Under the pieces are notes generated by a model. It did not search any database. It saw only the letters and a program-made list of their open reading frames with translations, and was not told where the DNA came from. A stretch of 64,000 bases of DNA from an uncultured Candidatus Binatia bacterium (GTDB taxonomy: Bacteria > Desulfobacterota > Binatia > Bin18). How positions within the stretch are numbered: the stretch's first letter is position 1; each line of letters starts with the position of its first letter. The DNA lies in contig OZ243979.1 of the NCBI GenBank assembly GCA_965214755.1, forward strand, positions 3,669,022-3,733,021. Reading direction: 5' to 3'. Below are positions 2,804-62,199 of the stretch, one piece after another. Made by a program: the position numbers and the translations under genes.

Positions 2804-4307
2804 AACCCGGTCCGATCCGGACAAGTCCGTCTATCTGGTGAATCTGGGCTGTCCCAAAAATCTGGTGGATGGCGAGGTCATGCTCGGCCTGCTGGCGGAG
2901 GCGGGCTATACGCTGAGCCTTGACCCGGAACAGGCCGGGGTCCTGATGGTCAATACGTGCAGCTTTATTGATGAGGCCAAGGAAGAGTCGATTGAGACGA
3001 TCCTGGACCTGGCGGCCTATAAGGCGACGAAGACAAAGCGGAAACGTGTCCTCCAATCATCCAAAAAAGCTGGACACGTTTCCGCTTTCGAGAAACAGCT
3101 CATCGTGACCGGTTGTCTGGCCCAGCGCTACGGCCAAGAGCTGCGCGAAGTATTGCCCGAAGTGGACGTTTTTGTAGGAACGGGCGAGTTTCTGCGGATC
3201 ACCGAGATATTGGCACAGAAGCGGCGCGCGCTTGAAAAGCGGGAACGTGTCCTCCAATCATCCAAAAAGGCTGGACACGCTTCCTCTTTTGGCCCCACCC
3301 TGTATCTGGGGGCCTCCCACATCCTGCCGGACCACACCGTTCCGCGTATTCCGACCACCCATTTTTACTCGGCCTATCTCAAGGTTGCCGAGGGCTGCAA
3401 CCATAAATGCGCCTTTTGTATTATTCCGAAAATTCGCGGCTTACAGGAAAGTCGGCCGATCGCCTCTCTCGTGGAGGAGGCCACCGGACTGGTTGCGCAC
3501 GGGGTCAGAGAAATCAATCTCATTGCGCAGGACCTGACCGCCTATGGGCGAGAGCGCCGCGATGGGACAACCCTGCTCGCTCTGCTCAAATCTCTTGTGC
3601 GCGTTGAGGGTCTGGACTGGATTCGGCTGCTGTATTGCTATCCGAATTATCTTGATGAACCCCTGTTGCGTCTCATCGCTGAAGAAGAACGGGTGTGCTC
3701 GTATATTGATATGCCACTCCAGCACATCAGCGACCGGATGTTGAGGCGGATGAAGCGCGAGAAAAGTGGGGACGGCATTCGCCGCGTATTGGACCGGATT
3801 CGAGCCGCTATTCCGGGTGTGGTCTTACGCTCGTCTTTTATTGTTGGCTTTCCCGGTGAGCGGGAGGACGATTTTCAACAACTGAGCGATTTCGTGACCG
3901 AGGCAGCGCTCGACCACGTGGGGGTGTTTCGCTATTCCCAGGAGGAAGGGACGGCCGCGGGCACAATGGCCGACCAGATCAGCGAAGAGATCAAAGAAGA
4001 CCGCTGGCACAGGTTGATGGCCCGCCAGGCCGAGGTCGTGCGTAAAAAAAATATGGCGCTGGTGGGTGAGGAACGAGCGGTACTAGTCTGTGGCCAGGAC
4101 GATCACGACCGTTGGTGGGGACGGACGCAAGGCCAGGCTCCGGATATCGATGGCATCGTCTTCCTGGAACAGTGCCTGGCTGACAGCGGCGATATGATCC
4201 GCACCCGGATTACCGGGGCGTCCGGCTATGACCTGCAAGCTTTATGTCTTCCCGAACAGCCGCTTCAACAGCTCACAGCTCTTGACTTGGCCGCCGCTTC
4301 TCCCTAA
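2793..4307 (+). CDS. rimO: Ribosomal protein S12 methylthiotransferase RimO (MiaB-family radical SAM + TRAM), carrying two in-frame repeat-element insertions
   Basis: MTSKTRSDPDKSVYLVNLGCPKNLVDGEV...CNHKCAFCIIP (radical SAM CxxxCxxC)...TRAM-like C-terminus; about 60 aa longer than typical RimO because of two ~19-aa insertions (KRKRVLQSSKKAGHVSAFE and KRERVLQSSKKAGHASSFG) encoded by repeat copies 3 and 4. Confidence 0.8.
   Translation: MTSKTRSDPDKSVYLVNLGCPKNLVDGEVMLGLLAEAGYTLSLDPEQAGVLMVNTCSFIDEAKEESIETILDLAAYKATKTKRKRVLQSSKKAGHVSAFEKQLIVTGCLAQRYGQELREVLPEVDVFVGTGEFLRITEILAQKRRALEKRERVLQSSKKAGHASSFGPTLYLGASHILPDHTVPRIPTTHFYSAYLKVAEGCNHKCAFCIIPKIRGLQESRPIASLVEEATGLVAHGVREINLIAQDLTAYGRERRDGTTLLALLKSLVRVEGLDWIRLLYCYPNYLDEPLLRLIAEEERVCSYIDMPLQHISDRMLRRMKREKSGDGIRRVLDRIRAAIPGVVLRSSFIVGFPGEREDDFQQLSDFVTEAALDHVGVFRYSQEEGTAAGTMADQISEEIKEDRWHRLMARQAEVVRKKNMALVGEERAVLVCGQDDHDRWWGRTQGQAPDIDGIVFLEQCLADSGDMIRTRITGASGYDLQALCLPEQPLQQLTALDLAAASP
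3035..3089. repeat. Palindromic repeat element copy 3, in-frame inside rimO
   Basis: aaagcggaaacgtgtcctccaatcatccaaaaaagctggacacgtttccgctttc; lies entirely within the rimO reading frame without a stop. Confidence 0.8.
3235..3290. repeat. Palindromic repeat element copy 4, in-frame inside rimO
   Basis: aaaagcgggaacgtgtcctccaatcatccaaaaaggctggacacgcttcctctttt; same orientation and frame as copy 3. Confidence 0.8.
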
Positions 4308-4338
4308 GGTATCTGTCCTTTTTATCTCGACCGTGGTG

Positions 4339-4394
4339 AAAAAGGATAAACGTATCCAGCTTTTTTAGATTATTGGAGGATACGTTTATTCTTT
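4339..4394. repeat. Palindromic repeat element copy 5 (opposite orientation; arms carry a compensatory GTATCC/GGATAC change)
   Basis: aaaaaggataaacgtatccagcttttttagattattggaggatacgtttattcttt; the loop is the reverse complement of the loops in copies 3/4. Confidence 0.8.
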
Positions 4395-4406
4395 GGAGAA
4401 GGTGTC

Positions 4407-4826
4407 ATGAGAAAAACATTCCTCAAAAAAATGCGGACGACGCTCGCCGGCCAAAAACAGCAAATCCTGTTGCAGCTTGACGAAGAAATCCGAGAGGGAA
4501 AAGAGAGTGAGCTGGACGAAGGGATGGATACCTACGATCTCGCCAGCGAGGAGCGCGAACGGGAAATTCATCTGATTCTGAGTGACCGCGATCGGGACAA
4601 ACTGCAAGCCATAGAAAACGCACTGGAGCGGATCGAAGAGGGCGAATACGGCATTTGCGAAGACTGCGAAGAAGAGATCGCCCAAGCCCGTCTCGAAGCC
4701 TTGCCATTCACCAGACTGTGTATTGCCTGCCAAGAGGAACGCGAAAAGGAAGCGCGCTTTCAGCGCCGTATTGATGATGGGGGTGGATTCAGTCGGTCCA
4801 ACCTAGTTGATCTGGACGACGGGTAA
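4407..4826 (+). CDS. dksA: DksA/TraR-family C4 zinc-finger transcription factor
   Basis: 139 aa; acidic coiled-coil with DTYDLA (DxxDxA tip motif) and CEDCEEEI...CIAC zinc finger. Confidence 0.6.
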   Translation: MRKTFLKKMRTTLAGQKQQILLQLDEEIREGKESELDEGMDTYDLASEEREREIHLILSDRDRDKLQAIENALERIEEGEYGICEDCEEEIAQARLEALPFTRLCIACQEEREKEARFQRRIDDGGGFSRSNLVDLDDG

Positions 4827-4903
4827 GATCAGCCTCGCCTTTTTTCTCGGCCCATTCCGGTTGCCCGCACAAGGTGCCCCCTCTGTCGGCCCGCTGTGAT
4901 GAG

Positions 4904-6355
4904 ATGCGACCCGACGACCGACACACGCTGCTCACGGCACTCTTTTGGACGGCCATTGACGCGGTTCATCCGCGCCATCTGATCCCACAGACTGTTACGA
5001 TTGAAAAGGAACGGCTGATCGTTCGGCCACGTTCCCTCTTCGAGACCGCTGGCACGTTGACGCTCGCTCTGACGGGTCGCCTCTTCCTGATTGGGGCAGG
5101 GAAGGGGGCAGGCAGCATGGCCCAGGCGCTGATGTCCGTGCTCGGCCAGAGGAGAGAAAGAGTACGTGTGCCCTCCAACCATACAAAAAAGCAGGCCACG
5201 TGCCCTCTTTTTGGCGGCTGTATCATCATTCCGAGCGAGCAAGCGGTGTCTGAGCTGTCTCTGCCTGGAGTGCGGGTAGTGCAAGGCGAGCATCCCTTGC
5301 CTGGACCGGGCAGTGGGTACGCGACTCAAGCGCTTATGGAGAGCCTCTCCCAGACCCAACCCCACGACCTCGTCCTATTGTGTCTGACCGGCGGGGCTTC
5401 CAGTCTGCTCGTGCGCCCCGCGGTCGGGCTGACACTTTCAGACAAGACCATCACCAATGCTGTTTTATTGGAATGCGGAGCAGACATCCTGGCGCTGAAC
5501 ACCGTACGCAAACACATATCCCAGATAAAGGGCGGCTGGCTCGTGCACCACGCTCAGCCCGCGACTGTGGTCAGTCTGATTCTGTCGGACGTAATCGGTG
5601 ACGATATGAGCGTGATCGGCTCGGGCCCGACCGTCGCCGATCCAACGACGTTTATGGATGCCTGGCGGGTAGTGGAGCATTACGGCATCGCACCGCGGCT
5701 CCCTCAGTCCGTGCGTGCGCATCTGCAGAAAGGAGTCCGTGGAATCAGACCTGAGACGCCAAAACCCGGAGCCCCGATATTCTCTCGCGTCCACAATATA
5801 TTGATTGGGTCGAATCGCTTGGCCTTACAGGCTGTTCGCGAGGCTGCCGCGCACCGGGGGCTGCGCTCCCACCTGATTTCTCAGCCCCTCGCTGGTGACA
5901 CCCTCGTGGCCGGACGCGCTTTTGCCCAGACCCTGCGTACCGTTCGTCAACACTGCTCTGGCCCGACGTGCGTTCTGGCTGGTGGCGAGACAACGGTGCA
6001 GGTCCGGGGCACTGGGAAGGGAGGGCGCAATCAGGAGTTCGCGCTGACTGTCGCCCAAGAGCTCGCCGGGGAAGCCGGGTGGAGCCTGCTGAGTGCGGGA
6101 ACGGACGGCATAGATGGTCCGACCGATGCTGCCGGAGCCTTTGTGAACGGCCAGACGCTGAATCGAGCGCGTCGAAAAAATCTCGATCCCGCTCAATTTC
6201 TGCGCAATAATGACACTTATACTTTCTTTGCTGCTCTCGGTGACGTGTTTCGCCCAGGCCCAACGGGAACAAACGTGATGGACATTAAAATTGCGCTTGT
6301 GTATCCTCCCGGCGCTGAAGAGTGCTCCGGCAAAAAAGAACAGAACAGAGAGTAG
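4904..6355 (+). CDS. Glycerate 2-kinase / hydroxypyruvate reductase-like protein (MOFRL family) with an in-frame repeat-element insertion
   Basis: LIGAGKGAGSMAQAL, DVIGDDMSVIGSGPT, GGETTVQVRGTGKGGRNQEFAL motifs; alternative start at 4874; insertion RRERVRVPSNHTKKQATCPLFGG is encoded by repeat copy 6. Confidence 0.65.
   Translation: MRPDDRHTLLTALFWTAIDAVHPRHLIPQTVTIEKERLIVRPRSLFETAGTLTLALTGRLFLIGAGKGAGSMAQALMSVLGQRRERVRVPSNHTKKQATCPLFGGCIIIPSEQAVSELSLPGVRVVQGEHPLPGPGSGYATQALMESLSQTQPHDLVLLCLTGGASSLLVRPAVGLTLSDKTITNAVLLECGADILALNTVRKHISQIKGGWLVHHAQPATVVSLILSDVIGDDMSVIGSGPTVADPTTFMDAWRVVEHYGIAPRLPQSVRAHLQKGVRGIRPETPKPGAPIFSRVHNILIGSNRLALQAVREAAAHRGLRSHLISQPLAGDTLVAGRAFAQTLRTVRQHCSGPTCVLAGGETTVQVRGTGKGGRNQEFALTVAQELAGEAGWSLLSAGTDGIDGPTDAAGAFVNGQTLNRARRKNLDPAQFLRNNDTYTFFAALGDVFRPGPTGTNVMDIKIALVYPPGAEECSGKKEQNRE
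5155..5212. repeat. Palindromic repeat element copy 6, in-frame inside the glycerate-kinase-like gene
   Basis: agaaagagtacgtgtgccctccaaccatacaaaaaagcaggccacgtgccctcttttt. Confidence 0.75.
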
Positions 6356-10138: not shown

Positions 10139-11053
10139 TCAGTCGAGTTGGGAACCTATCTGAAGCCCGATATGCCGAGCGAGCTCGTCAGCGGCGATCT
10201 TTCCCTGCTCACCGCGAAGCTTTTTGGCGACGACCGTGCCACCGTTCAGGGCAATACTGACCGTCCCACCCCCAAGAGCGACCACTTGGCCTGGGGTTGC
10301 TGATCCGCCAGTCGGCTGCAGGCGACAGTCATACAAACGAATTTTCTGTCCGCGCCATGTTGTTGATGCGCCGGGCTGCGGGTCGCAACCGCGAATATGA
10401 TCAAAGACGGCGTGTGCTGGCTTAGACCAGTCAATGCCAGCATGTTCGTCCCGACACAACGGATCGTAATTGGCCTGGGATTCGTCTTGGACAATGCGCG
10501 GCGGACTGCCGGCTTGAATCAGATCGATCGCTTCGCCAGCGGCCTCAATACCGAGCGGGAAGAGTTTGTTGAAATACAGGGTTCCGGTTGTATCTTCCGG
10601 GCCAATTTCGACTTCTTTTTGAAGCAGTATCGGACCGGTATCAATGCCCTCGTCTACCCAGAACCAGGAGATCCCGGTCTTTTTCTCACCATTGATCAGG
10701 GTCCAGTTAATCGCACTCCCACCACGATACTTGGGTAAGAGTGACGGGTGAAAACAGATACTGCCGAGTTTGGGTGCGTTGAACACTGGAGGCGGAACAA
10801 TTTGGGTCACAAATGCCAATACGGCGAGGTCAGCGTCGAGTTCCTGAAATTTCTCCAGGACCTCAGGGCCCTTCATGGAGCGGTGTTGATACACGGGAAT
10901 GTCGAGTTCCCCTGCCCGCTTTTTGACCGGATCAAACTTTCCTTCGATTCTGTCCGGGGGGCAGAACACCGCCGGGATGTCCTGACCCTTGTCGCGGAGC
11001 TTATCGAGCGTTTTTTCCGCAAACGCGGCTTGACCGATGAGAATGATACGCAT
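10139..11053 (-). CDS. Formyltransferase-family protein (methionyl-tRNA formyltransferase-like)
   Basis: HPSLLPKYRGGSAINW and DTGPILLQ motifs of the formyl-transferase fold plus a C-terminal Fmt-like domain. Confidence 0.55.
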   Translation of the reverse strand: MRIILIGQAAFAEKTLDKLRDKGQDIPAVFCPPDRIEGKFDPVKKRAGELDIPVYQHRSMKGPEVLEKFQELDADLAVLAFVTQIVPPPVFNAPKLGSICFHPSLLPKYRGGSAINWTLINGEKKTGISWFWVDEGIDTGPILLQKEVEIGPEDTTGTLYFNKLFPLGIEAAGEAIDLIQAGSPPRIVQDESQANYDPLCRDEHAGIDWSKPAHAVFDHIRGCDPQPGASTTWRGQKIRLYDCRLQPTGGSATPGQVVALGGGTVSIALNGGTVVAKKLRGEQGKIAADELARHIGLQIGSQLD

Positions 11054-11801
11054 GTGGGTTCTCCTTTCCGTGTGGTGGGAATACGTCCTTCAGCACGTGG
11101 CTCAGCTTTTGGCCCATTGCAGCAATACTCATCCTGTTCAGCAATAAGCGGTTATTGATTTCGATTTCGAGATAGACGAGATGATGACGCTCGCCATGGT
11201 TCCGGGCGCTAAAGATAAGACCATCATAACCGGAGTAGGGCTCGTTATAGCGCACCCGATAGCCGGCGTGGCCCAGCCGTTGCCCGAACTCCTGAGCAAG
11301 GTCTTCGTAGCGGTCGAATAGGATACCTAAATCAAACGACCTTTTCTTCTCACCGAGGACCGGGGTAAAGCTGTGAACGCTGAGCAGAAAAACAGGCAGT
11401 GGCATTTTTTGCGTCAGCACGTGGTCAATAGCCGCATGATAGGGTTGGTAGAATTGCGTAATACGTTGCTGTTGTTCTACCTCGGTCAGATGCCTATTGG
11501 CCGGAACGCGCGTACCATTGCTCTCAGGAAGAATGAGATCATCGTCTGACAGGGCACGGTTGCAGTCAATTAAGAGGCGCGAGTATTGAGATAAAATAGC
11601 TGTGGAATCGACATGTTGGGTGATCTCCTGGACAACCGCCCGCGCACCAATGTCCCAGCCGATATGTCGTCGTAACTCGTCAGGAGGAATCCCGAGCGTC
11701 TCGTATTCAGGCGGGAGCGCGTATGACGCGTGTTCACAGGTCAGCACCACCGGAAAGGTGCCGTTCGGGTTGAGAAGCGTGAAGGGAGGCGCTGTGTGCA
11801 C
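11001..11801 (-). CDS. N-formylglutamate amidohydrolase family protein
   Basis: 266 aa; N-terminal LTCEHASYALP... pattern typical of FGase/HutG-like zinc amidohydrolases; overlaps the downstream formyltransferase by 53 nt. Confidence 0.55.
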   Translation of the reverse strand: MHTAPPFTLLNPNGTFPVVLTCEHASYALPPEYETLGIPPDELRRHIGWDIGARAVVQEITQHVDSTAILSQYSRLLIDCNRALSDDDLILPESNGTRVPANRHLTEVEQQQRITQFYQPYHAAIDHVLTQKMPLPVFLLSVHSFTPVLGEKKRSFDLGILFDRYEDLAQEFGQRLGHAGYRVRYNEPYSGYDGLIFSARNHGERHHLVYLEIEINNRLLLNRMSIAAMGQKLSHVLKDVFPPHGKENPHAYHSHRSSRVCGKNAR

Positions 11802-43663: not shown

Positions 43664-43739
<76 letters not shown>

Positions 43740-43818: not shown

Positions 43819-45558
43819 ATGGAAGCAGATACGACGCGTGGCAAAGACTCTATTCGCTACCAGCCTGACGAAAACCCACCGCCCCTCCTCTCCTTCGGTA
43901 TCGGCTTTCAGGCGGCCATGCTCGTGATAGGTGGGATCGTGTTGACCCCTGCGATTGTGCTCCGGGCGGCCGACCAGAGCGAGGTCTATCTATCCTGGGC
44001 GATCTTCGCAGCGCTCATCATCAGTGGGGCAACCACCGTCCTGCAATCCGTCCGGGTCGGGCGCTTCGGAGCCGGTCACATCCTGATCATGGGGACCTCC
44101 GGCGCTTTCATTGCGGTGTGTATCACCGCCCTGGTGGAGGGCGGGCCGGCCTTGCTGGCGACACTCATCTTTATCTCATCCTTGTTTCAGTTCGCCTTGG
44201 CGACTCGACTGTCGCTCCTGCGACGAATCATTACGCCGGTTGTTTCGGGCACGGTGGTCGCGCTGATTGCCGTGACCATTATGCCCATCGCATTTCAGAT
44301 GGTGTCGGACGTGCCTCAGGGCGCGCCGCCGGCCGCAGCGCCAGTGTCCGCTACGGCCACCCTGATCGCCATTGCGGCGCTGGCCTTGCGCACGTCGGGT
44401 GTATGGCGGCTCTGGGCGCCGGTCATCGGCATTGCGGTGGGCTGTCTGGTGGCCTCGTTCTTCGGGCTCTATGACATTGCACGTGTGGCCGAGACAGCGT
44501 GGATTGGCATACCGACATCTGGCTGGCCCGGCTTTGACCTGTCGTTTGGGAGCGAATTCTGGGTACTGCTGCCGGCCTTCGTGTTTGTGACCCTGGTCGG
44601 TGCCATTGAAACAATAGGTGATTCGGTGGCCATTCAGCGCGTCTCATGGCGTACCCCCCGGGCGGTCGATTTCCGGACGGTCCAGGGTGCGGTTAATGCC
44701 GATGGTCTGGGCAATCTGTTGTCCGGTCTGGCCAGTACTGTGCCGAATACGACCTATTCGAGCAGCATCCCGCTCACCGAACTGACCGGAGTGGCGGCGC
44801 GCAATGTCGGGGTCAGCCTTGGTCTCATCTTCATCGCGCTCGCCTTTCTGCCCAAGGGAGCGGCCCTGATACTCGCCATTCCCAGCCCGGTGGTGGCCGC
44901 CTATCTCATGGTGCTGATGGGCATGCTTTTCGTCCAGGGTATGAAGATCATCATGCAGGACGGGCTCGACTATCGGAAAGGCGTGGTGGTCGGGATTTCC
45001 TTCTGGCTCGGTGCGGGCTTTCAGAACCAGGCTATCTTCGCCGACCAACTCGGCGAGCAGTGGAGGGCGCTGCTTGGCAACGGCATGACGGCCGGCGGCT
45101 TGGCCGTCCTCGCCCTGACCCTGTTCACGGAACTGACAGGTCCGCGTCGCCACCGTCTGGAAATGGACCTGGACATAGCGGCCCTGCCCAAGATCAACGG
45201 GTTTCTGCGTGAGTTGGCCTCACGCTTCGGCTGGAATACTGCCTCGATGGAGCGCTTGTGCGCGGCTGGTGAGGAAACGCTGCTGAGTCTTGTGCAGCCG
45301 GAGGACGAAACCATCCCCGACAAGCGGCAGCTCTTCGTTGTTGCACATGGCGACCGCGCGGAAGTCGAGTTGGAATTTGTGGCCGCGGTCGGGGATGAAA
45401 ATCTTGAAGACCGCCTGGCCCTGCTCGGTGAGGGGAGCGCCACACCCGAAGAGCACGAGATTTCCCTCCGTCTGCTGAAACATTTTGCGGCCTCGGTCCA
45501 TCACCAGCAATACCACGATATCGACATCGTGACCGTGCGGGTCGAAGCGGCGCGCTAG
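43819..45558 (+). CDS. NCS2-family nucleobase (xanthine/uracil) permease with a ~140-aa C-terminal cytoplasmic extension
   Basis: Polytopic membrane protein with NCS2-like N-terminal helices; hydrophilic C-terminal domain. Confidence 0.6.
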   Translation: MEADTTRGKDSIRYQPDENPPPLLSFGIGFQAAMLVIGGIVLTPAIVLRAADQSEVYLSWAIFAALIISGATTVLQSVRVGRFGAGHILIMGTSGAFIAVCITALVEGGPALLATLIFISSLFQFALATRLSLLRRIITPVVSGTVVALIAVTIMPIAFQMVSDVPQGAPPAAAPVSATATLIAIAALALRTSGVWRLWAPVIGIAVGCLVASFFGLYDIARVAETAWIGIPTSGWPGFDLSFGSEFWVLLPAFVFVTLVGAIETIGDSVAIQRVSWRTPRAVDFRTVQGAVNADGLGNLLSGLASTVPNTTYSSSIPLTELTGVAARNVGVSLGLIFIALAFLPKGAALILAIPSPVVAAYLMVLMGMLFVQGMKIIMQDGLDYRKGVVVGISFWLGAGFQNQAIFADQLGEQWRALLGNGMTAGGLAVLALTLFTELTGPRRHRLEMDLDIAALPKINGFLRELASRFGWNTASMERLCAAGEETLLSLVQPEDETIPDKRQLFVVAHGDRAEVELEFVAAVGDENLEDRLALLGEGSATPEEHEISLRLLKHFAASVHHQQYHDIDIVTVRVEAAR

Positions 45559-45585
45559 GCGAGGGTCATCTTCGACCCGCAATCC

Positions 45586-47001
45586 CTACGCAATGGACGG
45601 TTTAGCGTCCTGCCAGGGGCACATCTTCTCGAACGCAGCGGAGGCACGTAGCACGCCGGCGTCGTCAAACCGTCGTCCCACAATCTGGAGGCCAACCGGT
45701 AAGCCATCTTTGGTAAACCCACACGGAATGGACGCCGCCGGATTCCCGGTCAGGTTGAAGGGAAACGTAAAGGTAAGCCACTCGTACGGGGCCAGCCGGG
45801 TGCCGTTGACTGATTGGGCGTTGTCGAGCCCGACCGCAAATGGCGGGCAGGGCAGGGTCGGGGTGAGCAGCAGGGTGTATTTCTCAAAAAATTTCTGGAC
45901 CCCGGTATTCCAGTCCAGGCGCTCAAACCACGAGTCAATATAGTGGTTGGCTTTCCATTTATGTGTTTTCTCAATCAGCTTCACCAAGTTGGGATCAATA
46001 TCCGACCGGCGCGTTTTAAGTGCCGGCCCCAACCGGGCGGCAATCCCGCCACAAAACAGACCCTCCCAGGCCCGTTGCGGATTTGGCCACTTGGGCTTGA
46101 CGTTTTCGACCCGACACCCCAGGCCCCTGAACCGTCGGGCCGCTTTGGCGCACAGGGCTTTGACCTCTGGATCGAGCGCCTTGGTAAAGCCAAGATCATC
46201 GCACCATGCTACCCGCCAGCCTTGCAGTGAGCCCTTGAGGGCTTTGACATAGTCGGTCGTGTCCGCCGGCAGAGAGTACTGATCGTGCCCGTCCGATCCT
46301 GCTGTGACGTTCAGCATGAGTGCGGCATCGGCCACCGTCCGCGTCATCGGCCCAACATGAGACAAACTCCAGGCTCCGCTCGGCGGATACACGGGAATCC
46401 GGCCAAAAGACGGCTTGAGCCCATACACCCCGCTGAACGACGACGGGATACGAATCGAGCCGCCCCCGTCCGTTCCTATGGCGAGGGGTCCCAGGCCGGC
46501 TGCAATCGCCGCTCCGGCCCCACCGCTTGAGCCACCCGGTGTCAGGGCGACATTCCACGGATTCCGGGTTGGCCCGAACAAGAGATTGTGCGTGACTCCC
46601 AGCCAGCCAAATGTTGGTGTGTTTGTTTTGCCGAGTTGGATAGCCCCCGCCGCTTTCATACGCGCCACCATGGGCGCATCTTCGGTCGGGATATTGTCGG
46701 CGAAAAGCGGCGTCCCAAACGTCGTGCGAATGCCTTTGGTTATCACCAAGTCCTTGGTTGAGAACGGAACGCCATGGAGTGGGCCAAGTGAAGCCGAGTG
46801 CTGCATGAGCATTTTCTCGGCTCTACGCGCGGCGCGCAGCGCGGCTTTGTCCGTCAGGGTGACAAACGCGTTGAGCTGCGGGTTGAGTTGGTCAATTCGA
46901 TCAAGGATCGCTCTCGTGACTTCGACCGGGGAGATCTGTTTACGCCGAATCGCTTTCGCTAGTTCGGTTGCGGACAGCCAGCAGATGTCGTCCTTTGCCA
47001 T
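45586..47001 (-). CDS. Amidase (amidase-signature family, GatA-like)
   Basis: GGSSGGAGAAIAAGLGPLAIGTDGGGSIRIPSSFSGVYGLKPSFG (AS signature, Ser-cisSer-Lys). Confidence 0.85.
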   Translation of the reverse strand: MAKDDICWLSATELAKAIRRKQISPVEVTRAILDRIDQLNPQLNAFVTLTDKAALRAARRAEKMLMQHSASLGPLHGVPFSTKDLVITKGIRTTFGTPLFADNIPTEDAPMVARMKAAGAIQLGKTNTPTFGWLGVTHNLLFGPTRNPWNVALTPGGSSGGAGAAIAAGLGPLAIGTDGGGSIRIPSSFSGVYGLKPSFGRIPVYPPSGAWSLSHVGPMTRTVADAALMLNVTAGSDGHDQYSLPADTTDYVKALKGSLQGWRVAWCDDLGFTKALDPEVKALCAKAARRFRGLGCRVENVKPKWPNPQRAWEGLFCGGIAARLGPALKTRRSDIDPNLVKLIEKTHKWKANHYIDSWFERLDWNTGVQKFFEKYTLLLTPTLPCPPFAVGLDNAQSVNGTRLAPYEWLTFTFPFNLTGNPAASIPCGFTKDGLPVGLQIVGRRFDDAGVLRASAAFEKMCPWQDAKPSIA

Positions 47002-47206
47002 GTCATCCTCCTTGGCCCTCCCTGTGTACGAATCTTCCGAGAGAGAGGCAAGCGCTCACGTTCCGGTTGCAGCTTAATTGAGAGATATTGCTAATCATCT
47101 TGACGAAGGGCTAGGAATGGGAGAAAACCAAGCCCCTGACTAAGTTTGAGACAGCGACGATTGCCTATCAGATATTTATGAGGGGCTTCTAAAAGGTGAC
47201 CGTATT

Positions 47207-47875
47207 ATGCGTCATTTCTATTGGATAGGATTGGTTCTTTTTGGATTTTTCCTATTCCCTGATTTTCTTTTTGCCCAATCCTCTACGCTCCAATATACAC
47301 AAGACGATATGACTGATGAGATTACCGGTGCGAGTCTTGAGATTGCTCATGCTCACGGATTCTTTGGCTGTACTTGTGATACTGAAGAAACGAAGGCTGT
47401 TCGCCAGCTAGCAGAAGCCGCACAAATATCGCGATATTTTTTGGATCGTATGCCAAAAGGGATCGGCATTACGTTTGTGTACAGACCAAAAGAATTTCTG
47501 GTTCATTTAGAGGAATTCATTGATGTTTCTATGCGGATTGATTCTCAACCAGTGACAGAAGCTTCATGGAAATGGGCAGATAACGCCGCGTTTCTTGTGT
47601 CAGGAACGGATATTTTTGGAGAAACTGTCTCTGGACAACTACGGTCTAAGATAAGCTTTGCTATTCGTAACCGTTTTGGATTCACCCACCCTAGTTTAGA
47701 AGCCCTTTCTTTGTTTCTTCGAGCACCAAGTACTCGTGATTTATTAAAAACTATAAGTACTGCACAACAAGTGAGAATAAAAATAGAAGGGGGTAAGGCA
47801 CTTCGATTTGATTTAGTCAAAGCACGGAAAGACATCCAGGAGTTCAAGAAGATTTGTTATAATTATAGATTCTAG
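47207..47875 (+). CDS. Hypothetical secreted protein (signal peptide), in an AT-rich island
   Basis: MRHFYWIGLVLFGFFLFPDFLFAQSS signal peptide; ~42% GC versus ~60% in flanking DNA. Confidence 0.5.
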   Translation: MRHFYWIGLVLFGFFLFPDFLFAQSSTLQYTQDDMTDEITGASLEIAHAHGFFGCTCDTEETKAVRQLAEAAQISRYFLDRMPKGIGITFVYRPKEFLVHLEEFIDVSMRIDSQPVTEASWKWADNAAFLVSGTDIFGETVSGQLRSKISFAIRNRFGFTHPSLEALSLFLRAPSTRDLLKTISTAQQVRIKIEGGKALRFDLVKARKDIQEFKKICYNYRF

Positions 47876-47891
47876 AACTGGAGTATAGCTC

Positions 47892-48269
47892 ATGAAAAGA
47901 GACATGGATTTGGTCAGGAACCTCCTTCTTGCTATTGAGAGTGCGGAAGGGTCATTGACGAATACAACGCTCAGTATTGCACTTAAAAAGTTATACATGG
48001 ACGATTCTCAAATTCCGTCTTACCAGACAATCGTTGGTCACATCGAGATCATGGAAGAAGCAGAGCTTGTGTCTGTGAAACTGGTTCCGCATATGGGTGG
48101 CCCGCCTGCCTTCCTGGGGTTGAGGATGACCTGGCATGGACAAGATTTTCTAGCCAATGCCCGTAACTCTTCCATTTGGGAAAAGGCACGGCCAAAGATG
48201 GAGTCGCTAAGCTTTGACTTGGTAAAACAACTCTTGAGCCTCCTGGTGAAAGAGGCAATGCTGCCCTAA
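47892..48269 (+). CDS. DUF2513-like small protein, in the AT-rich island
   Basis: MKRDMDLVRNLLLAIESAEG... N-terminus characteristic of DUF2513 phage-associated proteins (from memory). Confidence 0.4.
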   Translation: MKRDMDLVRNLLLAIESAEGSLTNTTLSIALKKLYMDDSQIPSYQTIVGHIEIMEEAELVSVKLVPHMGGPPAFLGLRMTWHGQDFLANARNSSIWEKARPKMESLSFDLVKQLLSLLVKEAMLP

Positions 48270-48330
48270 TCAGCATCCTTTCCCGCCACACAGAGTCTCT
48301 CCTTGGTGACTTGACTCAGAAATTCCGTCT

Positions 48331-48361
48331 TCTATCAAGCGCCTGGAAAAATCTTGATAGA
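48331..48361. repeat. Inverted repeat at the right edge of the AT-rich island
   Basis: TCTATCAAG-cgcctggaaaaat-CTTGATAGA. Confidence 0.4.
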
Positions 48362-48488
48362 GGAAGGGACGCTACGAAATGTGCCCAGAGCCTTCCGTCC
48401 GTACCTTGTCACTGTTCGGGCTGAATGGTAGGGTTCCCCTCGATTTTACGGCTCGTCCCTCGACTGGAACGTATTCAGGAGTGCATAC

Positions 48489-49367
48489 ATGTCCGAACAG
48501 CAAGCAGACATTTCAGCCCAGCGCGTGACCTATCGTGTCGAAGAAGAACTCACCATTATCGGCGACGCCTGGGGAAACGCCGACAATCCGCCCGTCCTGC
48601 TCTTGCACGGCGGCGGCCAAACGCGCTTTGCCTGGGGCAATACGGCCCGGACCCTGGCCGAGCAAGGCTGGTATGCAGTATCCCTGGACCTGCGTGGTCA
48701 TGGAGAGAGCGGCTGGGCTCCGGACGGCAACTATAATATCGAGAAGTTTTCCGCGGACCTCCACGTCGTGTTGGGTCATTTCGACCGGCGTCCGGTCCTG
48801 GTGGGGGCCTCCCTCGGCGGCATTACCTCAATGCTGACCGAAGGGGAAGCGCCGCAGCCGGTGAGTGCCGGGGTGGTGCTGGTTGATGTCACGCCGCGGG
48901 TGGAGCAGAAAGGCGTAGACCGCATTCGAGCCTTCATGACCGCCCGGCCCGATGGCTTTGAGAGCCTGGAAGAAGTTGCCGATACCATCGCTGCGTATAT
49001 TCCTCACCGTCCTCGCCCCAAGGATGTGAGCGGTCTGGCCAAAAACCTGCGTAAGGGAGAGGACGGCCGCTATCGCTGGCACTGGGACCCGAACCTCATG
49101 CACCCGGCCCGCTTTCGGCGCGACCCCGAACGGCTCATGGCCGCGGCCCGCGGGCTGCGGCGGGTGCCGACCCTGCTGGTCCGGGGGAAGCTCAGCGATG
49201 TGATCAGCGACGAAACGACCCAGGAATTTCTCGACGCCGTGCCGCACGCCAAATATATAGACGTGTCTGATGCCGGCCATATGGTCGCCGGAGATAAAAA
49301 CGATATCTTCAGCCAAGCGGTGATCGAGTTCCTGACTGATATCAAGACAACCGCGCCGGCCGCCTAG
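48489..49367 (+). CDS. Alpha/beta-fold hydrolase
   Basis: VLLLHGGGQTRFAW...GASLGG nucleophile elbow. Confidence 0.7.
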   Translation: MSEQQADISAQRVTYRVEEELTIIGDAWGNADNPPVLLLHGGGQTRFAWGNTARTLAEQGWYAVSLDLRGHGESGWAPDGNYNIEKFSADLHVVLGHFDRRPVLVGASLGGITSMLTEGEAPQPVSAGVVLVDVTPRVEQKGVDRIRAFMTARPDGFESLEEVADTIAAYIPHRPRPKDVSGLAKNLRKGEDGRYRWHWDPNLMHPARFRRDPERLMAAARGLRRVPTLLVRGKLSDVISDETTQEFLDAVPHAKYIDVSDAGHMVAGDKNDIFSQAVIEFLTDIKTTAPAA

Positions 49368-49626
49368 GCAAATTGCGATTCCGTGTAGCCGCCCGCTGGA
49401 TGCCGGATTACGTCCGGCATGACGGGAGCCCCCTGCACGGCTGGAGCTTATCGTGCAACGCTCTAGGCAAGCTCTTCGGCAGAGCCGGGTCTACCGCCCT
49501 CGGCCCATGGTGTAAAACTCGGCGTTGGGTCGCATAAGTGCTTGCCAAAGAATCTTGGCTTTCACCATGGAGCCGGCTAGGCTAGGGGCTCGCCCGTGAG
49601 CCCTTGGGAGGCGAAAGGAGGACCCC

Positions 49627-50049
49627 ATGGAAAACAAGCCGGAAAAAACCGCACTGCAAGACGATTACTCCTACCGGGCGGTTGACGCCTATAACACCCG
49701 GATATACCTCCTCCCGGCTTTGGCCGACCCCGAGCGCCGCGCCGCGCTTATTGCCGAGCACCGCGCCCGCCCGCTGTATGAGGCCGCCCAGCCCGGCAAG
49801 CCGGCACCCATGGACAGCCCGGCCCTGGCCCGTCTGCTGGACCGCCTGCGCGTTGTCCCCCAACAGGACAAGCACGTCATTATCGAAACGCGCCCTTGGG
49901 AAGAATATCGTATTGGGGTTCTGCCCGGCGTCCGGGGCAAGGCGGTTGAAATAACGGACGAAGCCTATCCCACCCGCGAAGACGCCGAGCATGCGATTTT
50001 CCTCAAACGCCTCAACGCCTTACTCGACGCGTACGGGATTACCGACTGA
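49627..50049 (+). CDS. N,N-dimethylformamidase small (alpha) subunit-like protein
   Basis: 140 aa; C-terminal ...RPWEEYRIGVLPGV...EDAEHAIFLKRL parallels the Paracoccus DmfA1 C-terminus (...WDAYRIAT...EEAMHAVFLRRI); located immediately upstream of the large subunit. Confidence 0.55.
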   Translation: MENKPEKTALQDDYSYRAVDAYNTRIYLLPALADPERRAALIAEHRARPLYEAAQPGKPAPMDSPALARLLDRLRVVPQQDKHVIIETRPWEEYRIGVLPGVRGKAVEITDEAYPTREDAEHAIFLKRLNALLDAYGITD

Positions 50050-50073
50050 GCCGCCATTTGTCAGGAGGGACGT

Positions 50074-52443
50074 ATGACGACACTGGGTATTACCGGCTAT
50101 AGCGACCGTATTTCCGTGCAGCCCGGACAGACTGTTCGATTCTATGTGCACTCCGAACGCAACCAAGCCTACCGGGCCGATATCGTGCGGCTCATCCATG
50201 GCGACACCAATCCTGACGGTCCCGGCTATAAGGAAGAAGAGATTGCGAGCTGTGGTGAATATCCGGGGCGTCACCAAGCCGTCCATGCCGGCTCGTATAT
50301 TTGTGTGCCACACGATACGCGGTTCGATATCAGCAGCTTTACCCTGATGGCCCTGGTTTTTCCCACGACGCCAACCAAAGGGGTGCAGGGCATTGTCACG
50401 AAATGGTCCGGGCCGGAAGAGACGGGCTACGGCCTGTTTATTGACGAGCAGAGCGAGCTGGCCGTGCGCATAGGCCGGGGAAAGGGCGTGGTCGAACAGC
50501 TTTCCTCAGGCAAACCGCTGTTCCGTAAGGTGTGGTATCTGGTGGCCGCGAGCTTTGACGCGGCCAGCGGTCATATCAGCCTGGTGCAAGAACCGATTGT
50601 GACCAGCACCAACACGGGACACGGGATGCGTTTTATCCATCCTATCGAAGAAACCCGTGCCGCAGTTGAGCGGTCTGGCTCTCCCCAGGCACCCGCCGCG
50701 AATGACTGTCCGGTGCTGATTGCCGCGGCAACGACCCAGGCGCATTCAGGGCGGTCTGTCTGGGGCGGACACTTCAGTCATGTGCACTCGCCCATCGAGA
50801 TTCCAGAACACGAAGCCAAGTTCAACGGACGGATCGAACGCCCGACTATTGCCAATCGCGTGCTCAATCGGGCGGAAATCGAACGTGTCCTGCACGGTCC
50901 TCGGCCCCTCCCGACCGAGCTGCGACCGGCGCTGGTTGCAGCCTGGGATTTTGCGGCCAATATCGTTCCAAACGCGTCCTCAACCCAGGTGCTGGACGAC
51001 TCCCTGCACCGTCTGCACGGCCACTGCATTAATATGCCGTCACGCGGCATGCCCGGTCACAACTGGACTGCGGATCAGATGAGTTTTACTGCCGCGCCAC
51101 AGGAGTACGGGGCGATTCATTTTCATGACGACGCCATAGACGACGCGCGCTGGGAGGTTGATTTCGAGTTTCCTATTCCCGACGACCTGAAAAGTGGGGT
51201 GTACGCCGCCCGGCTGCGTTTGGGCGGGCAGGACACACCCGGCAATGAAGACTATATCCCCTTCTTTGTGCGTCCTCCGGCCGGTCGCCCTACCGCCAGG
51301 ATCGCAGTAATTATTCCGACGGCCAGCTATATGGCCTATGCCAACGAAAATCTCAGCGCGGACTCACAAGTCGCCCAACTCCTGACCGGCCGCGTGCCGC
51401 TGATGCAGCCTGGGGACCTCTTACTCCAAGAGAAAGACGGCTACGGCTACGGCACCTACACCGTTCATAGTGACGGCTGGGGGGTGCATATCTCCTCGCG
51501 GCTGCGGCCCATTCTCAATATGCGGCCCAAATACACCCACGTGCTGTCGCCGTCGGTCTGGCAACTGAACGCCGACCTCCATCTGACCGACTGGCTTGAA
51601 GCCATGGCGTTTGACTTTGACGTGCATACGGATGAAGACCTGCAACGCGAAGGGGTCGAACTGCTGAAGCAATACCGCGTCGTGCTGACCTGTCATCATC
51701 CCGAGTATTGCTCGGAAGAAATGCTGGACGCCTACGAAGCCTACCAGCAGCAAGGCGGCCGCTGGCTGTATCTGGCGGCCAACGGCTTTTACTGGTGTAC
51801 GGTGTTTCATCCTGATAATCCCGCTCTCATCGAAGTCCGTAAGGGCGACAACGGCACGCGGGCCTGGACCATTAGCCCAGGGGAATACTGCAATGCCTTC
51901 GATGGAAAACACGGCGGCCTGTGGCGGGTACGGGGTCGGAATATGAGTAAGCTGACCGGTGTGAGTTTTACCTCGTTCGGTCTGACGGCCTCCAGCTATT
52001 ACCGCCGAGCCCCGGACAGCTTCCGACCGGAATGTGCCTGGATGTTCGCAGGCATAGGCGAAGACGAGCCGATTGGAAATTTCGGTCTGGTCGGGGGTGG
52101 AGCCGCCGGGCTGGAGCTCGACCGCTACGACCTGGAACTCGGGACGCCCCACAACGCCTTTCTGCTCGCCCACTCCGAGGGACATAACGATATCTTTGTG
52201 ACGGTCTCAGAGGAATCGACGTTCAATGCGCGTGGCTATTTTGCGGCTGGTGGTACCGGCGACCAGAATCCCTATATCCGGGCGGACATTGTCTACTTCA
52301 AAACGCCAAATGACGGGGCGGTGTTCTCGGCTAGCTCCATGGCCTGGTGTGGGAGTCTTTCGCACAACAACTATGACAATAATGTGTCGCGTCTGACCGC
52401 CAATGTCATTCGCGGCTTTCTCCAAGACGGACCGTTGCCGTAG
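50074..52443 (+). CDS. N,N-dimethylformamidase large (beta) subunit-like amidohydrolase
   Basis: 789 aa; many blocks shared with DMFase large subunit: RLIHGDTNPDGPGYKEE, QEYGAIHFHDDAIDDARWEVDFEF, IPFFVRPP, ASYMAYANE, LNMRPK, ADLHLTDWL, GLVGGGAAGLELDRYDLELGTP, VRADIVYF, SLSHNNYDNNVSRLTANV. Confidence 0.7.
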   Translation: MTTLGITGYSDRISVQPGQTVRFYVHSERNQAYRADIVRLIHGDTNPDGPGYKEEEIASCGEYPGRHQAVHAGSYICVPHDTRFDISSFTLMALVFPTTPTKGVQGIVTKWSGPEETGYGLFIDEQSELAVRIGRGKGVVEQLSSGKPLFRKVWYLVAASFDAASGHISLVQEPIVTSTNTGHGMRFIHPIEETRAAVERSGSPQAPAANDCPVLIAAATTQAHSGRSVWGGHFSHVHSPIEIPEHEAKFNGRIERPTIANRVLNRAEIERVLHGPRPLPTELRPALVAAWDFAANIVPNASSTQVLDDSLHRLHGHCINMPSRGMPGHNWTADQMSFTAAPQEYGAIHFHDDAIDDARWEVDFEFPIPDDLKSGVYAARLRLGGQDTPGNEDYIPFFVRPPAGRPTARIAVIIPTASYMAYANENLSADSQVAQLLTGRVPLMQPGDLLLQEKDGYGYGTYTVHSDGWGVHISSRLRPILNMRPKYTHVLSPSVWQLNADLHLTDWLEAMAFDFDVHTDEDLQREGVELLKQYRVVLTCHHPEYCSEEMLDAYEAYQQQGGRWLYLAANGFYWCTVFHPDNPALIEVRKGDNGTRAWTISPGEYCNAFDGKHGGLWRVRGRNMSKLTGVSFTSFGLTASSYYRRAPDSFRPECAWMFAGIGEDEPIGNFGLVGGGAAGLELDRYDLELGTPHNAFLLAHSEGHNDIFVTVSEESTFNARGYFAAGGTGDQNPYIRADIVYFKTPNDGAVFSASSMAWCGSLSHNNYDNNVSRLTANVIRGFLQDGPLP

Positions 52444-59970: not shown

Positions 59971-60615
59971 ATGAATGAGAAGTTTCTGAAACGATTTGAA
60001 GAACTCCAGGAGCAATCGGATTCGTTGCCGTTTGAACAAGGTGGATATTCCCGGTACGTATCGGAAGGAAGGTGGCAAAGATGGGCCACAAGTTGTCAAA
60101 ATCTCATCAGGGCCGTGTTCGGGGAAGAATCTCCTCACTATAACAACTTTGTAGAAGCACTAAAGGGATGTCGCGGAGGTGAGGGCGAGATAAATGCCCT
60201 CCAAGGAGTCTTCCAAAGCGCCAAAGAAGATTTTGAAGGCGGCTACGTTTTCAATGTGGACCTCAGAATTTCTGGAGAGGTCTTCGGCGATTTCGTCGTT
60301 CTGGCTAAGCAGTCTCTTACTGATGGTCACAAAGATGTGGCGGCGGTTTTGGCATCTGCCGCGTTGGAGGACGCGTTGAAACGTTACGCAAACGCTGAAG
60401 GTCTGAATATCGACAACCAATCGATGTCAGAAGTCATTAATGCACTCAAATCAAAAAGGCTAGTGTCAGGAGCCCAGAAATCCCTATTGGACGCCATGCC
60501 ACGTATAAGAAATTTTGCAATGCACGCCAATTGGGAAAAAATATCAGAGCCGGACGTTAACGGGGTTATCGGTTTTGTTGAGCAGTTCCTCCTAACAAAA
60601 TTCAGCCAGGACTAA
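59971..60615 (+). CDS. HEPN-domain protein (DUF4145-like), in an AT-rich island
   Basis: 214 aa; C-terminal RNFAMHANWEKIS contains an Rx4H HEPN motif; ~45% GC. Confidence 0.4.
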   Translation: MNEKFLKRFEELQEQSDSLPFEQGGYSRYVSEGRWQRWATSCQNLIRAVFGEESPHYNNFVEALKGCRGGEGEINALQGVFQSAKEDFEGGYVFNVDLRISGEVFGDFVVLAKQSLTDGHKDVAAVLASAALEDALKRYANAEGLNIDNQSMSEVINALKSKRLVSGAQKSLLDAMPRIRNFAMHANWEKISEPDVNGVIGFVEQFLLTKFSQD

Positions 60616-60617
60616 CT

Positions 60618-61199
60618 ATGCCTGACTCCATACTCAAACGGTGGAACATTACTGTCGAAGAACTTACGCAAGTAGTCGACCAGAACCCCAGTCTCAGAGG
60701 AATGATCCTCGGCTACCTTGCCGAGTTGAAGCTAGAGCAGCTCTGGCTCGGGCGCGAAGGGATTTCTCAGGTATCAAAGCATGATGACCATAACAGGAAA
60801 AAGAAAGGCGACCGTGTCGTTACGTACAAAGGTAAGGAATTCATTTTTGAATCGAAATCTCTTCAGACAAACACCATACGGAAAACGGATGAGGGTTGGG
60901 TTGGCAAAGCCCAGGTAGATGCGAGTGACCTGCGCGCGGTCATTCTCCCTAATGGAACTGAAGTACACACAACCTGTTTACTTCGGGGAGAATTTCATAT
61001 TCTGGCTGTCAATATTTTCGCCTTTGAAGAGAAGTGGAGGTTTGTCTTTGCAAAAAACGATGAGTTGCCCTCATCAAGGTATAGAGGCTACGACGAGTAT
61101 CAACGAGACCATTTACTTGCCACCCTTGTAACGGTTCGTTGGCCCCCCAAGCCTCCGTTTTATGAAGAACCGTTTACCCTGATGAACGAGTTGCTGTAG
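60618..61199 (+). CDS. Hypothetical protein with a PD-(D/E)xK-like motif (candidate restriction endonuclease)
   Basis: 193 aa; [17 protein letters not shown] (D...ExK); starts 3 nt after the HEPN gene; converges on the MTase gene. Confidence 0.35.
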
Positions 61200-61959
61200 C
61201 GAATCGCATCTGCGACGCTTTCGTGTTCCTTGGTATCTTCACAAAGATCAGAAAGTATGAATGATTTTTTCGCGCATGTACCTGATTGATTACTCTACTC
61301 ATCCCCGGTTTGTTAGGGCGAACTACGATAAACAAGTCTTTGCAGAAGAAACCGATTTCGGCGAATGAGTTTATAATCTCGACGTGGGTAAGATTTTGTC
61401 TGTTTGCACTGACTTCGTCTTGACATTTGACGATATATACACCTCTCTCTTTCAGAATGCGGCGCGCCTCCTTCCCTCCCTCATTGTACATCTCTAAAAC
61501 TGCCGCGTGCCATTTCGCGCCATTAGGTTTGGGCGCTTCATCACCGTTGGAGTAATGGTCTCTGAACGCAGTGTGTGTCCCATCGCCCGCCTTTATGGCG
61601 TTACTATTCCTGTAGAATCCTTCCATGTATGGCGGGTCGAAAACGACAACATCAAATGAGCTATCTTCATAGGGAAGCTTCCGGCAGTCTATGCCATCCG
61701 CGATATCGGACGGGAAAAATCGATATTTACTTGTATCTACATTTCTCCAGAAAATCCCTTTGCCATATGTTACGTCGGCAATGCGTGCGCCATCTGCTAC
61801 GTGAAGTTGCAGCACTTTCGGAAAGATATCAGCATTATTACCAATATACGCAGAAAATATGAGGTCTGAGGTTGCCACGCCCTCAGGACTTTTTCTTCCT
61901 GACGGGGTGCGGTGTTCCTCAGTCAGGTCAAAGAGCATTTTAACTTGTTCCGTACCCAT
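61174..61959 (-). CDS. DNA methyltransferase (N6-adenine or N4-cytosine, DPPY motif)
   Basis: VVFDPPY catalytic motif; upstream [14 protein letters not shown]-binding-like block; 261 aa. Confidence 0.65.
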
Positions 61960-61965
61960 ATTATA

Positions 61966-62199
61966 TTAATCGACATTTCCAAACTTCTCTTCCAGAAGTT
62001 TTCTTATTGCGTCTGCCATCTTGATTCCCTGTCGTGCGCAGCCTGCCTTAACGTTGGCGTGGAGTTCGGATGGAATATCAATTGTTAGGCGTTTCATCGC
62101 GGGTCGCCCTTCAAATTGAGGAGAGTGTTCGTGGACCACCGGTTCATACGATAATTTATTTTTTCTGTAATTCATTATTTGCGACTTTACGGAAAACAT
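61966..62199 (-). CDS. Ribbon-helix-helix (ParG/CopG-like) small protein upstream of the MTase
   Basis: MKRLTIDIPSELHANVKAGCARQGIKMADAIRKLLEEKF. Confidence 0.5.
   Translation of the reverse strand: MFSVKSQIMNYRKNKLSYEPVVHEHSPQFEGRPAMKRLTIDIPSELHANVKAGCARQGIKMADAIRKLLEEKFGNVD

Follow-up and report, generated by a model that had tools for sequence, protein, structure and literature searches.

Probable mosaic cargo at a variable amidase/hydrolase junction in a Candidatus Binatia chromosome: a rare exported protein and a DUF2513 protein with separate histories

Background

What accounts for the short stretch of low-GC (guanine plus cytosine) DNA that lies between an amidase gene and an alpha/beta hydrolase gene in an uncultured Candidatus Binatia bacterium? 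The stretch occupies positions 47002-48488 of the DNA analyzed here, a segment of 64,000 nucleotides (contig OZ243979.1, positions 3,669,022 to 3,733,021; GenBank assembly GCA_965214755.1) hereafter called the window. It holds two open reading frames (ORFs): ORF1, encoding a protein with a signal peptide, and ORF2, encoding a member of the DUF2513 family. An original prediction, made from the letters of the window, had taken the two for a matched, horizontally acquired cassette with an inverted repeat at its right edge. We consider it probable that the stretch is mosaic accessory cargo in a recombination hotspot, into which two unrelated, independently mobile single-gene modules have been layered.

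The locus in itself is routine small-scale horizontal gene transfer and a fairly ordinary genomic islet. Its setting appears to be a compact, core-flanked hotspot in Candidatus Binatia, a lineage that is uncultured and has received little study, and the cargo turns over between species that differ by ~5% in protein sequence.

Base composition and gene content

In 300-nt windows, GC was 0.38-0.44 over 47100-48150, compared with 0.56-0.66 in the flanks, and had risen again by 48450. The AT-rich segment that had been placed between genes of ~60% GC is therefore real, and composition is not uniform across the region, as it should have been had the original prediction been wrong. A 1-kb scan of the 64-kb window revealed just one further patch that was comparably low, at 60-62 kb. 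Overall GC of the stretch is 0.45. ORF1 (47207-47875, plus strand, 222 amino acids [aa]) forms the lowest part of the trough, with GC of 0.40 and GC at third codon positions (GC3) of 0.31. ORF2 (47892-48269, plus strand, 125 aa) is intermediate (GC 0.47, GC3 0.55), and the core neighbor genes have GC of 0.60-0.63 and GC3 of 0.69-0.74. Both ORFs are low in GC in all hosts examined. The ORF listing gave the two lengths as first described, with a spacing of 16 nt on the same strand rather than the 17 nt originally counted.

The amidase gene (45586-47001, minus strand; PF01425, 372 bits) is a core gene conserved in all relatives, and the alpha/beta hydrolase gene (48489-49367, plus strand; identified by a Pfam match) is a core gene conserved across the species panel. 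Both had been named correctly from the outset. They are transcribed divergently, with the low-GC stretch between them, and their ratios of nonsynonymous to synonymous substitution rates (dN/dS) are 0.07-0.11 and 0.06-0.07, respectively.

Cargo turnover between conserved genes

Species-representative genomes were probed with the adjacent amidase, which covered 17 Candidatus Binatia genomes (amidase 91-95% identical) and more distant ones; the loci are referred to below by L numbers. Seven sister species (L008, L009, L011, L012, L013, L016 and L019) have an empty site, in which the start codons of the amidase and hydrolase genes are 177-197 bp apart, compared with 1,487 bp in the window. The same two genes flank the empty site, at 94-97% identity at the protein level, and gene order is kept. 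These seven species show that the low-GC stretch is accessory DNA and not conserved backbone. The ORF1+ORF2 pair is found in L021 (OY763426.1), at 96.8% and 97.6% protein identity, and a metagenome contig, L001, represents the same locus at 98.9%. Of about 20 relatives, 2 have the pair and 1 more has ORF1 without ORF2, a distribution that does not fit conserved core genes. Horizontal acquisition, as first proposed, is supported by the seven empty sites, by the foreign composition and by an insert that is far more alike between two species than are its core flanks.

The remaining relatives carry other cargo. A DUF4268 protein matching the PADLOC model PDC-S11 is encoded in L014 (4960-5919), L018 (4852-5919) and L020 (4553-5509); the match scored 385-392 bits in L014 and L018, and L020, which was unscanned, was assigned by close N-terminal sequence similarity. 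Recent experiments showed that PDC-S11 is a modification-dependent defence system, which was named Madara (bioRxiv 10.64898/2026.09.05.749240). A small ORF is present in L017 and L020, a 229-aa protein without assigned function in L022, and ORF1 followed by a DEDDh/RNase T-type exonuclease gene in L002. On the amidase side, L010 has at least 6 kb of other DNA with a WYL regulator and Cas1f (3304-5541), and the more distant species L026 and L027 have signalling genes at the junction. At least eight junction states thus occur across about 20 species, and by these comparisons we take the amidase/hydrolase junction to be a variable chromosomal recombination hotspot.

The L002 exonuclease gene (10814-11419, minus strand) encodes 201 aa and stands in place of the DUF2513 gene. 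Its product has a hydrophobic N-terminal stretch, ILGVVAIVVLLYVLVVLGW, that resembles a membrane helix, and its PADLOC matches are the Cas-associated DEDDh model and PDC-S48. In the 6 kb of L010 that were examined there is no CRISPR array, and the locus is described here simply as Cas1f (type I-F) with a WYL regulator; it could be part of a larger CRISPR-Cas island or a rearrangement.

Defence and accessory hotspots flanked by core genes are described in E. coli, Pseudomonas and Vibrio. The Binatia junction resembles them in that close relatives carry differing low-GC cargo at one core junction, in that some of this cargo consists of proven or candidate defence genes (PDC-S11/Madara, Cas1f with WYL, the DEDDh exonuclease), and in that empty alleles exist and no integrase is present. 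It differs in its very small islets of one or two genes and in its host, an uncultured Binatia lineage; a defence role would also be at most putative for most of the cargo here, ORF1 and ORF2 included. Because a Madara/PDC-S11 homologue sits in the hotspot, the other occupants are candidates to include in defence screens, among them ORF1, ORF2, the 229-aa protein and the L002 exonuclease, for which an N-terminal membrane helix is predicted. From the company they keep in the hotspot, a role of ORF1 and ORF2 in defence or exclusion is plausible.

Separate histories of ORF1 and ORF2

The two genes could be read as a dedicated system, in which a secreted ORF1 effector for surface exclusion or anti-phage action and a DUF2513 cognate regulator or partner were acquired, and work, as a unit. 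They lie on the same strand, 16 nt apart, each with its own ribosome-binding site (RBS); the pair is intact in L021 and L001 and was transferred as one high-identity block; and validated or candidate defence genes occur at the site in sister species. The distribution of the two families speaks against such a unit. In L002 ORF1 occupies the same site without ORF2 and is followed by the exonuclease gene instead. The closest DUF2513 genes outside this locus, in L003 (88% identity), L004 (68%) and L005 (66%), lie at unrelated sites with no relative of ORF1: the L004 gene is near HicAB and an MmeI-type enzyme, the L005 gene near an IS1595 transposase and a methylase fragment. When ORFs within 2 kb of DUF2513 genes were clustered over 163 loci, no universal partner emerged, and among 160 DUF2513 loci there was no recurrent secreted partner. 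Four distant loci of the ORF1 family lack DUF2513 and have no neighbor in common with one another or with the window. Neither protein matched the PADLOC-DB v2 defence-protein models at E up to 1. We rate a dedicated two-gene system as unlikely. Judged by gene neighborhoods, ORF1 and ORF2 are independent passengers rather than a conserved pair, and the matched two-gene cassette originally envisaged is not supported.

A hidden partner of ORF1 was also sought. In L249 and L007 a small ORF comes directly after the ORF1-like gene, and in L007 and L248 there is an 87-aa gene downstream; these candidates are mutually unrelated and unrelated to DUF2513, and were set aside.

The latest transfer did involve both genes. 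Between the window and L021, synonymous divergence (dS) is 0.086 for ORF1 and 0.103 for ORF2, whereas the amidase (0.36), the hydrolase (0.355) and the permease (0.28) have diverged further. Identity of 95-97.5% is limited to 47200-48400, with 89-92% in the flanks, and in the flanking genes L021 is no nearer to the window than is an empty-site species. Since dS of the insert is below that of flanks that are themselves no nearer, the block was exchanged after the species diverged, and ORF1 and ORF2 moved together between the two species. ORF1 compared with its L002 copy gives a dS of 0.26, about that of core genes, which points to ORF1 as the older layer and to DUF2513 as a later addition.

Both genes are under purifying selection, at dN/dS of 0.10-0.40. 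For ORF1 the ratio is 0.16-0.40 and for ORF2 0.10-0.31, against 0.06-0.12 in core genes; the ORF1 protein evolves markedly faster than core proteins. Each gene is intact in every copy, and neither has internal stops.

Modular structure of the insert

Module borders were mapped by blastn and by alignment of all alleles. At the left, amidase-proximal intergenic DNA (47002-47053) is present in empty and filled alleles and aligns at 82-92% with all empty-site species. It is followed on the plus strand by module A (47054-47172), the 5' portion of a small ORF that was resident here earlier, which is absent from empty alleles and aligns at 81-83% with L017 and L020, and with L022 up to 47151. The small ORF is intact in L017 and L020, where it reads MTEFETATIAFQ...; in the window its remnant (47136-47192) has an ATG to CTG change at the start, reads LTKFETATIAYQ... 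and stops after 18 codons at 47190-47192. The ORF1 module (47173-47875, plus strand) comprises an RBS (AGGTGA) and ORF1 and is common, over 47173-47865, to L002 and L021. The DUF2513 module (47878-48281, plus strand) comprises an RBS (GGAG), ORF2 and 12 nt; it is common to L021 and is found also in L003 at an unrelated site. A 3' segment (48282-48363) that contains most of a hairpin occurs in the window, L001 and L021 only and is unaligned in L002, L003 and the other panel members. A right boundary segment (48364-48397) is confined to cargo-carrying alleles, namely L017 and, from 48384, also L014, L018, L020 and L022. Hydrolase-proximal intergenic DNA (48398-48488) is shared by all alleles and is 92-97% identical in empty-site species. 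In empty alleles the place of the cargo is taken by about 48 bp of filler that is private to them.

As an observation on its own, the ~404-bp block of RBS, DUF2513 ORF and 12 nt carries no promoter; it is 89.6% identical between the window (47878-48281) and L003 (9987-10390), which are unrelated sites, and no repeats or recombinase were found near it. The boundary segments 47054-47062 and 48384-48401 are common to cargo-carrying alleles and missing from empty ones, and a GGCAAG-like hexamer stands at both borders in L014, L018, L020, L022 and L002. The hexamers and shared boundaries may be due to chance or may be a relic of the original insertion event. No known RNA families were detected in 46900-48600.

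According to these alignments, at least three modules of differing history make up the stretch, a mosaic that arose by successive replacements and not as a single cassette. The remnant of the older small ORF would be the first layer, ORF1, exported by Sec and belonging to a very rare family associated with mobile elements, the second, and ORF2, a standalone DUF2513 winged-helix protein, the third. Cargo would be swapped by homologous recombination through the conserved flanks. This route is proposed because the insert has no recombinase gene and no terminal repeat, and because the junction alignment shows neither a target-site duplication nor direct repeats, which the original prediction had suggested might mark the insertion site. 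Module A may supply the promoter of ORF1, in which case ORF1 and ORF2 would be co-transcribed from it.

Several points weigh against this mosaic-hotspot interpretation. The scan for sigma-70-like promoters found none on the plus strand. The boundary segments of cargo-carrying alleles could be relics of a site-specific system, and the only ground for the homologous recombination route is the lack of mobility genes and repeats. The close spacing of ORF1 and ORF2 and their joint movement in the latest transfer make a functional link between them possible in this lineage. The L010 locus was counted tentatively as a filled junction, given that the 52 bp adjoining its amidase are not conserved and that its hydrolase lies beyond the DNA examined, and it may represent a rearrangement instead of cargo at the junction. 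Finally, an AlphaFold2 model of ORF1, built from a 2-sequence alignment, had a predicted local distance difference test score (pLDDT) of 35.7 and gave no usable fold.

Some features of the locus would suit a decayed prophage or integrative element, of which the two genes would be the last survivors, drifting towards loss: DUF2513 is typical of temperate-phage immunity regions, an integrase or resolvase lies beside ORF1-family genes, and one truncated ORF is already present in the stretch. Survivors on the way to loss should not, however, both be intact and under purifying selection, and the 1.5 kb contain no other phage genes, att repeats or integrase and are flanked by core genes. The only tRNA gene (tRNA-Met, 43664-43739) is 3.3 kb away with core genes between, and tRNA-targeted integration was rejected on the same grounds. 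The differing histories of the modules, moreover, imply no single origin. A prophage remnant is very unlikely on this evidence.

An inverted repeat at the right junction

The original prediction had described a 9-bp inverted repeat with a 13-nt loop at the right edge. The repeat is real (core 48331-48339/48353-48361, with the loop as stated) and extends to an imperfect hairpin at 48325-48367 on the plus strand, whose 15-nt arms (48325-48339 and 48353-48367) are complementary at 13/15 positions and which straddles the junction at 48364. It does not bound a cassette, as both arms are at one end and repeat detection found no matching inverted repeat at the left border. The hairpin is thus a single internal element near the right junction and not a terminal inverted repeat.

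None of 300 shuffles of the region produced a hairpin this good. Folded alone it has a free energy of -18.2 kcal/mol (z = -2.7), and it is not the minimum-energy fold in a 131-nt context. The palindrome lies 62 nt downstream of the ORF2 stop codon and is degraded in L021, where an uncompensated T to C change breaks a pair. Neither it nor related half-sites were found near the DUF2513 genes of L003-L005, which speaks against a role as an operator. A terminator is disfavored as well, because the hairpin lacks a U-tract and was missed by the scan for consensus terminators. The hairpin may be a transcript-end structure, a protein-binding site or a by-product of the recombination junction.

Non-random as it is, the repeat gives a transposon, a miniature transposable element or an integron-type cassette some initial appeal, and the DUF2513 block, a promoterless single-ORF unit, is gene-cassette-like. 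The position of both arms at one end, the missing target-site duplication, the lack of a transposase or integrase in the insert and the absence of the palindrome from other DUF2513 loci all count against an element bounded by the repeat, which we regard as highly improbable. Neither ORF1 nor ORF2 resembles a transposase. attC core sites (GTTRRRY or RYYYAAC) are excluded for 48270-48400, where the plus strand contains no GTT or AAC. Further copies of such a unit with identical termini were not seen, nor was an IntI-type integrase with an attI site nearby, although no systematic search for IntI was made over the whole window.

That ORF1 and ORF2 are native core genes of odd composition is scarcely credible: ORF1 is syntenic with its L002 copy at a divergence about that of core genes, but the species panel, with no insert in seven sister species and different cargo in at least eight further ones, refutes this idea, which also conflicts with GC3 of 0.31 and 0.55 as against 0.69-0.74 in core genes and with an insert four times less diverged than its flanks between the window and L021.

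ORF1 defines a rare family of predicted exported proteins

ORF1 had been described as having a clear signal peptide and no recognizable family, and both statements held. The signal peptide, encoded at 47207-47275, has the n-h-c regions MRH / FYWIGLVLFGFFLF / PDFLFA|QS. Its hydrophobic core of 14 residues has a mean Kyte-Doolittle value of 2.47, a proline stands at -6, and the cleavage site reads L-F-A|Q. ORF1 contains no second hydrophobic or transmembrane segment. It had no match in Pfam, PHROGs, PADLOC or NCBIfam, and a search of its family against the same libraries and PDB sequences yielded nothing significant.

A database of 5.8 billion sequences held only 2 clusters, ORF1 itself and one relative of 79% identity. 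Exhaustive HMMER searching of 1.84 billion cluster representatives added five weak matches (E = 1e-5 to 4e-4), and a profile search two further members, bringing the known family to about nine proteins. These have so far come from a handful of soil or sediment metagenome assemblies. There was no tblastn match to ORF1 in phage and plasmid records, and its C-terminal motif, searched as a hand-made degenerate DNA pattern, found nothing in JGI metagenomes or IMG/VR. In the alignment with the remote members, TDE, C57, H100, V107, R110, D112, W123, A128, FDL, R207, EF and C217 are invariant; ORF1 differs from the short members by two insertions. By these profile comparisons we consider the family real, previously undescribed and very rare.

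A signal peptide or lipobox is present in seven of the nine members, and every member has exactly two conserved cysteines in its mature part. Signal peptides together with a conserved cysteine pair fit an exported, disulfide-bonded protein, and ORF1 probably carries one disulfide bond. At one distant locus of the family the neighbors are a GmrSD/HNH gene, an EcoRI-like methylase, a resolvase and a gene that by eye is primase-polymerase-like; another locus adjoins a tyrosine integrase. These neighborhoods suggest that the family is linked to mobile elements.

Mobile elements are known to encode exported exclusion and immunity proteins, such as Llp of phage T5, Cor of phi80, TraT of the F plasmid and the periplasmic immunity proteins of type VI secretion. 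The ORF1 family is like them in being small, exported by Sec or as lipoproteins, equipped with a conserved cysteine pair, fast-evolving and located in mobile or variable DNA. It differs in that it has no detectable sequence similarity to them and no linked toxin gene, so that the comparison is a working analogy and not a family assignment. ORF1 would act in the periplasm or envelope, its likeliest role being exclusion of, or immunity to, incoming phage, mobile DNA or toxins that act in the periplasm. To go further and regard ORF1 as the founder of a new family of mobile-element-borne, exported, disulfide-bonded exclusion or immunity proteins, possibly acting with ORF2 as an envelope anti-phage or anti-invasion module in a defence hotspot, would be quite a speculative step, and we think it rather unlikely to be correct.

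ORF2 is a DUF2513 protein with a predicted winged helix

The resemblance of the ORF2 N-terminus to DUF2513, noted at first from a few residues, proved well founded. Residues 2-105 match positions 1-96 of the 100-position PF10711 model at 68.1 bits (cut-off 29.6), and ORF2 also matches phrog_585 (E = 3e-19). The residues M1, K2, R3, D4, M5, L7 and R9 are invariant in the DUF2513 alignment (MKRDMDLxR motif). Complete relatives are standalone proteins of 100-140 aa in 152 of 159 cases and include no genuine fusions; long fusion ORFs in viral contigs were found to be artefacts of over-extended start codons. An ORF that recurs on the opposite strand, overlapping the 3' end of DUF2513 genes, is most likely a shadow of the conserved gene. 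Relatives number 131 in IMG/VR and 346 in JGI metagenome contigs, all of them ≤39% identical to ORF2. Closer ones (53-88% identity) come from ENA assemblies, and a single sample accounts for two of them.

DUF2513 genes have recurrent neighbors: CII (CP76), CI/S24 repressors, Cro/YdaS-type proteins and Eco57I/MmeI-type methylases. They are found in the regulatory regions of the phages phiN315 (SA1800), PVL (orf36) and Bcep176 (gp18). The S. aureus prophage phiN315 carries it inside the early operon in antisense orientation, close to a KilAC antirepressor gene, and Burkholderia phage Bcep176 has it in an operon divergent from a CII-like gene. By its genomic neighbors, DUF2513 is a kind of protein found in temperate-phage immunity regions. 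ORF2 resembles these phage copies in its end-to-end model match, its standalone length of ~120 aa, the MKRDMDLxR motif and its occurrence as an isolated accessory gene in variable DNA; it differs from them in residing in a Binatia chromosomal hotspot and not in a prophage. Although DUF2513 occurs in well-known S. aureus and Burkholderia phages, it is essentially unstudied: the literature mentions it only in passing and PF10711 not at all, and contains essentially nothing on its function.

An AlphaFold2 model of ORF2 from a 14-sequence alignment (pLDDT 87.7, predicted template modelling score 0.82) shows three helices, a wing formed by a beta-hairpin and three further helices at the C-terminus. 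A fold search with this model gave PadR/MarR-type regulators as best matches (for example Rv0047c 8jxk, VanR 5z7b, B. subtilis PadR 5x11 and AphA 1yg2). According to the model, ORF2 has a winged helix-turn-helix fold. There was no Pfam match to PadR (PF03551) or MarR in ORF2 at E up to 1, and a profile search of the PDB returned marginal winged-helix matches only (E 0.1 or worse). ORF2 differs from the short PadR subfamily in that its C-terminal part forms three short helices and not a single dimerization helix, and from PadR/MarR regulators in that the nearby palindrome is not conserved with the DUF2513 family. We infer from the predicted fold that ORF2 may be a dimeric, sequence-specific DNA-binding regulator. 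DUF2513 thereby gains a confident, if predicted, fold assignment (a PadR/MarR-like winged helix) and a consistent setting in temperate-phage immunity regions.

Several DUF2513 genes adjoin large type IIG or Eco57I/MmeI-type restriction-modification enzymes (L004 11826-15940; L208 68-3091), and in a cluster of four loci the enzyme gene ends 9 nt upstream of DUF2513. This arrangement hints that some members might be controller proteins for Eco57I/MmeI-type or type IIG systems.

Other features of the window

The backbone around the junction (43819-52443) is a conserved catabolic cluster of genes for a xanthine/uracil-family permease, the amidase, the alpha/beta hydrolase and the alpha (PF26354) and beta (PF20254) subunits of N,N-dimethylformamidase, the last two assigned by Pfam and located downstream of the hydrolase. 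Such a cluster suggests that this Binatia genus metabolizes amides or dimethylformamide-type compounds.

Relative to the window, L002 has ~2.9 kb of extra DNA (L002 3300-6248) with GerE/HTH_38 and TetR regulator genes directly upstream of tRNA-Met. With this site (~43600 in the window) the region has two variable spots, 3.4 kb apart.

The second low-GC patch (59971-62199, GC 0.46-0.48) encodes a DUF4145 protein (59971-60615) and a 193-aa protein without assigned family (60618-61199) on the plus strand, and an N6/N4 DNA methylase (61174-61959) and a ParG-like ribbon-helix-helix protein (61966-62199) on the minus strand. It looks like a small restriction-modification or defence islet.

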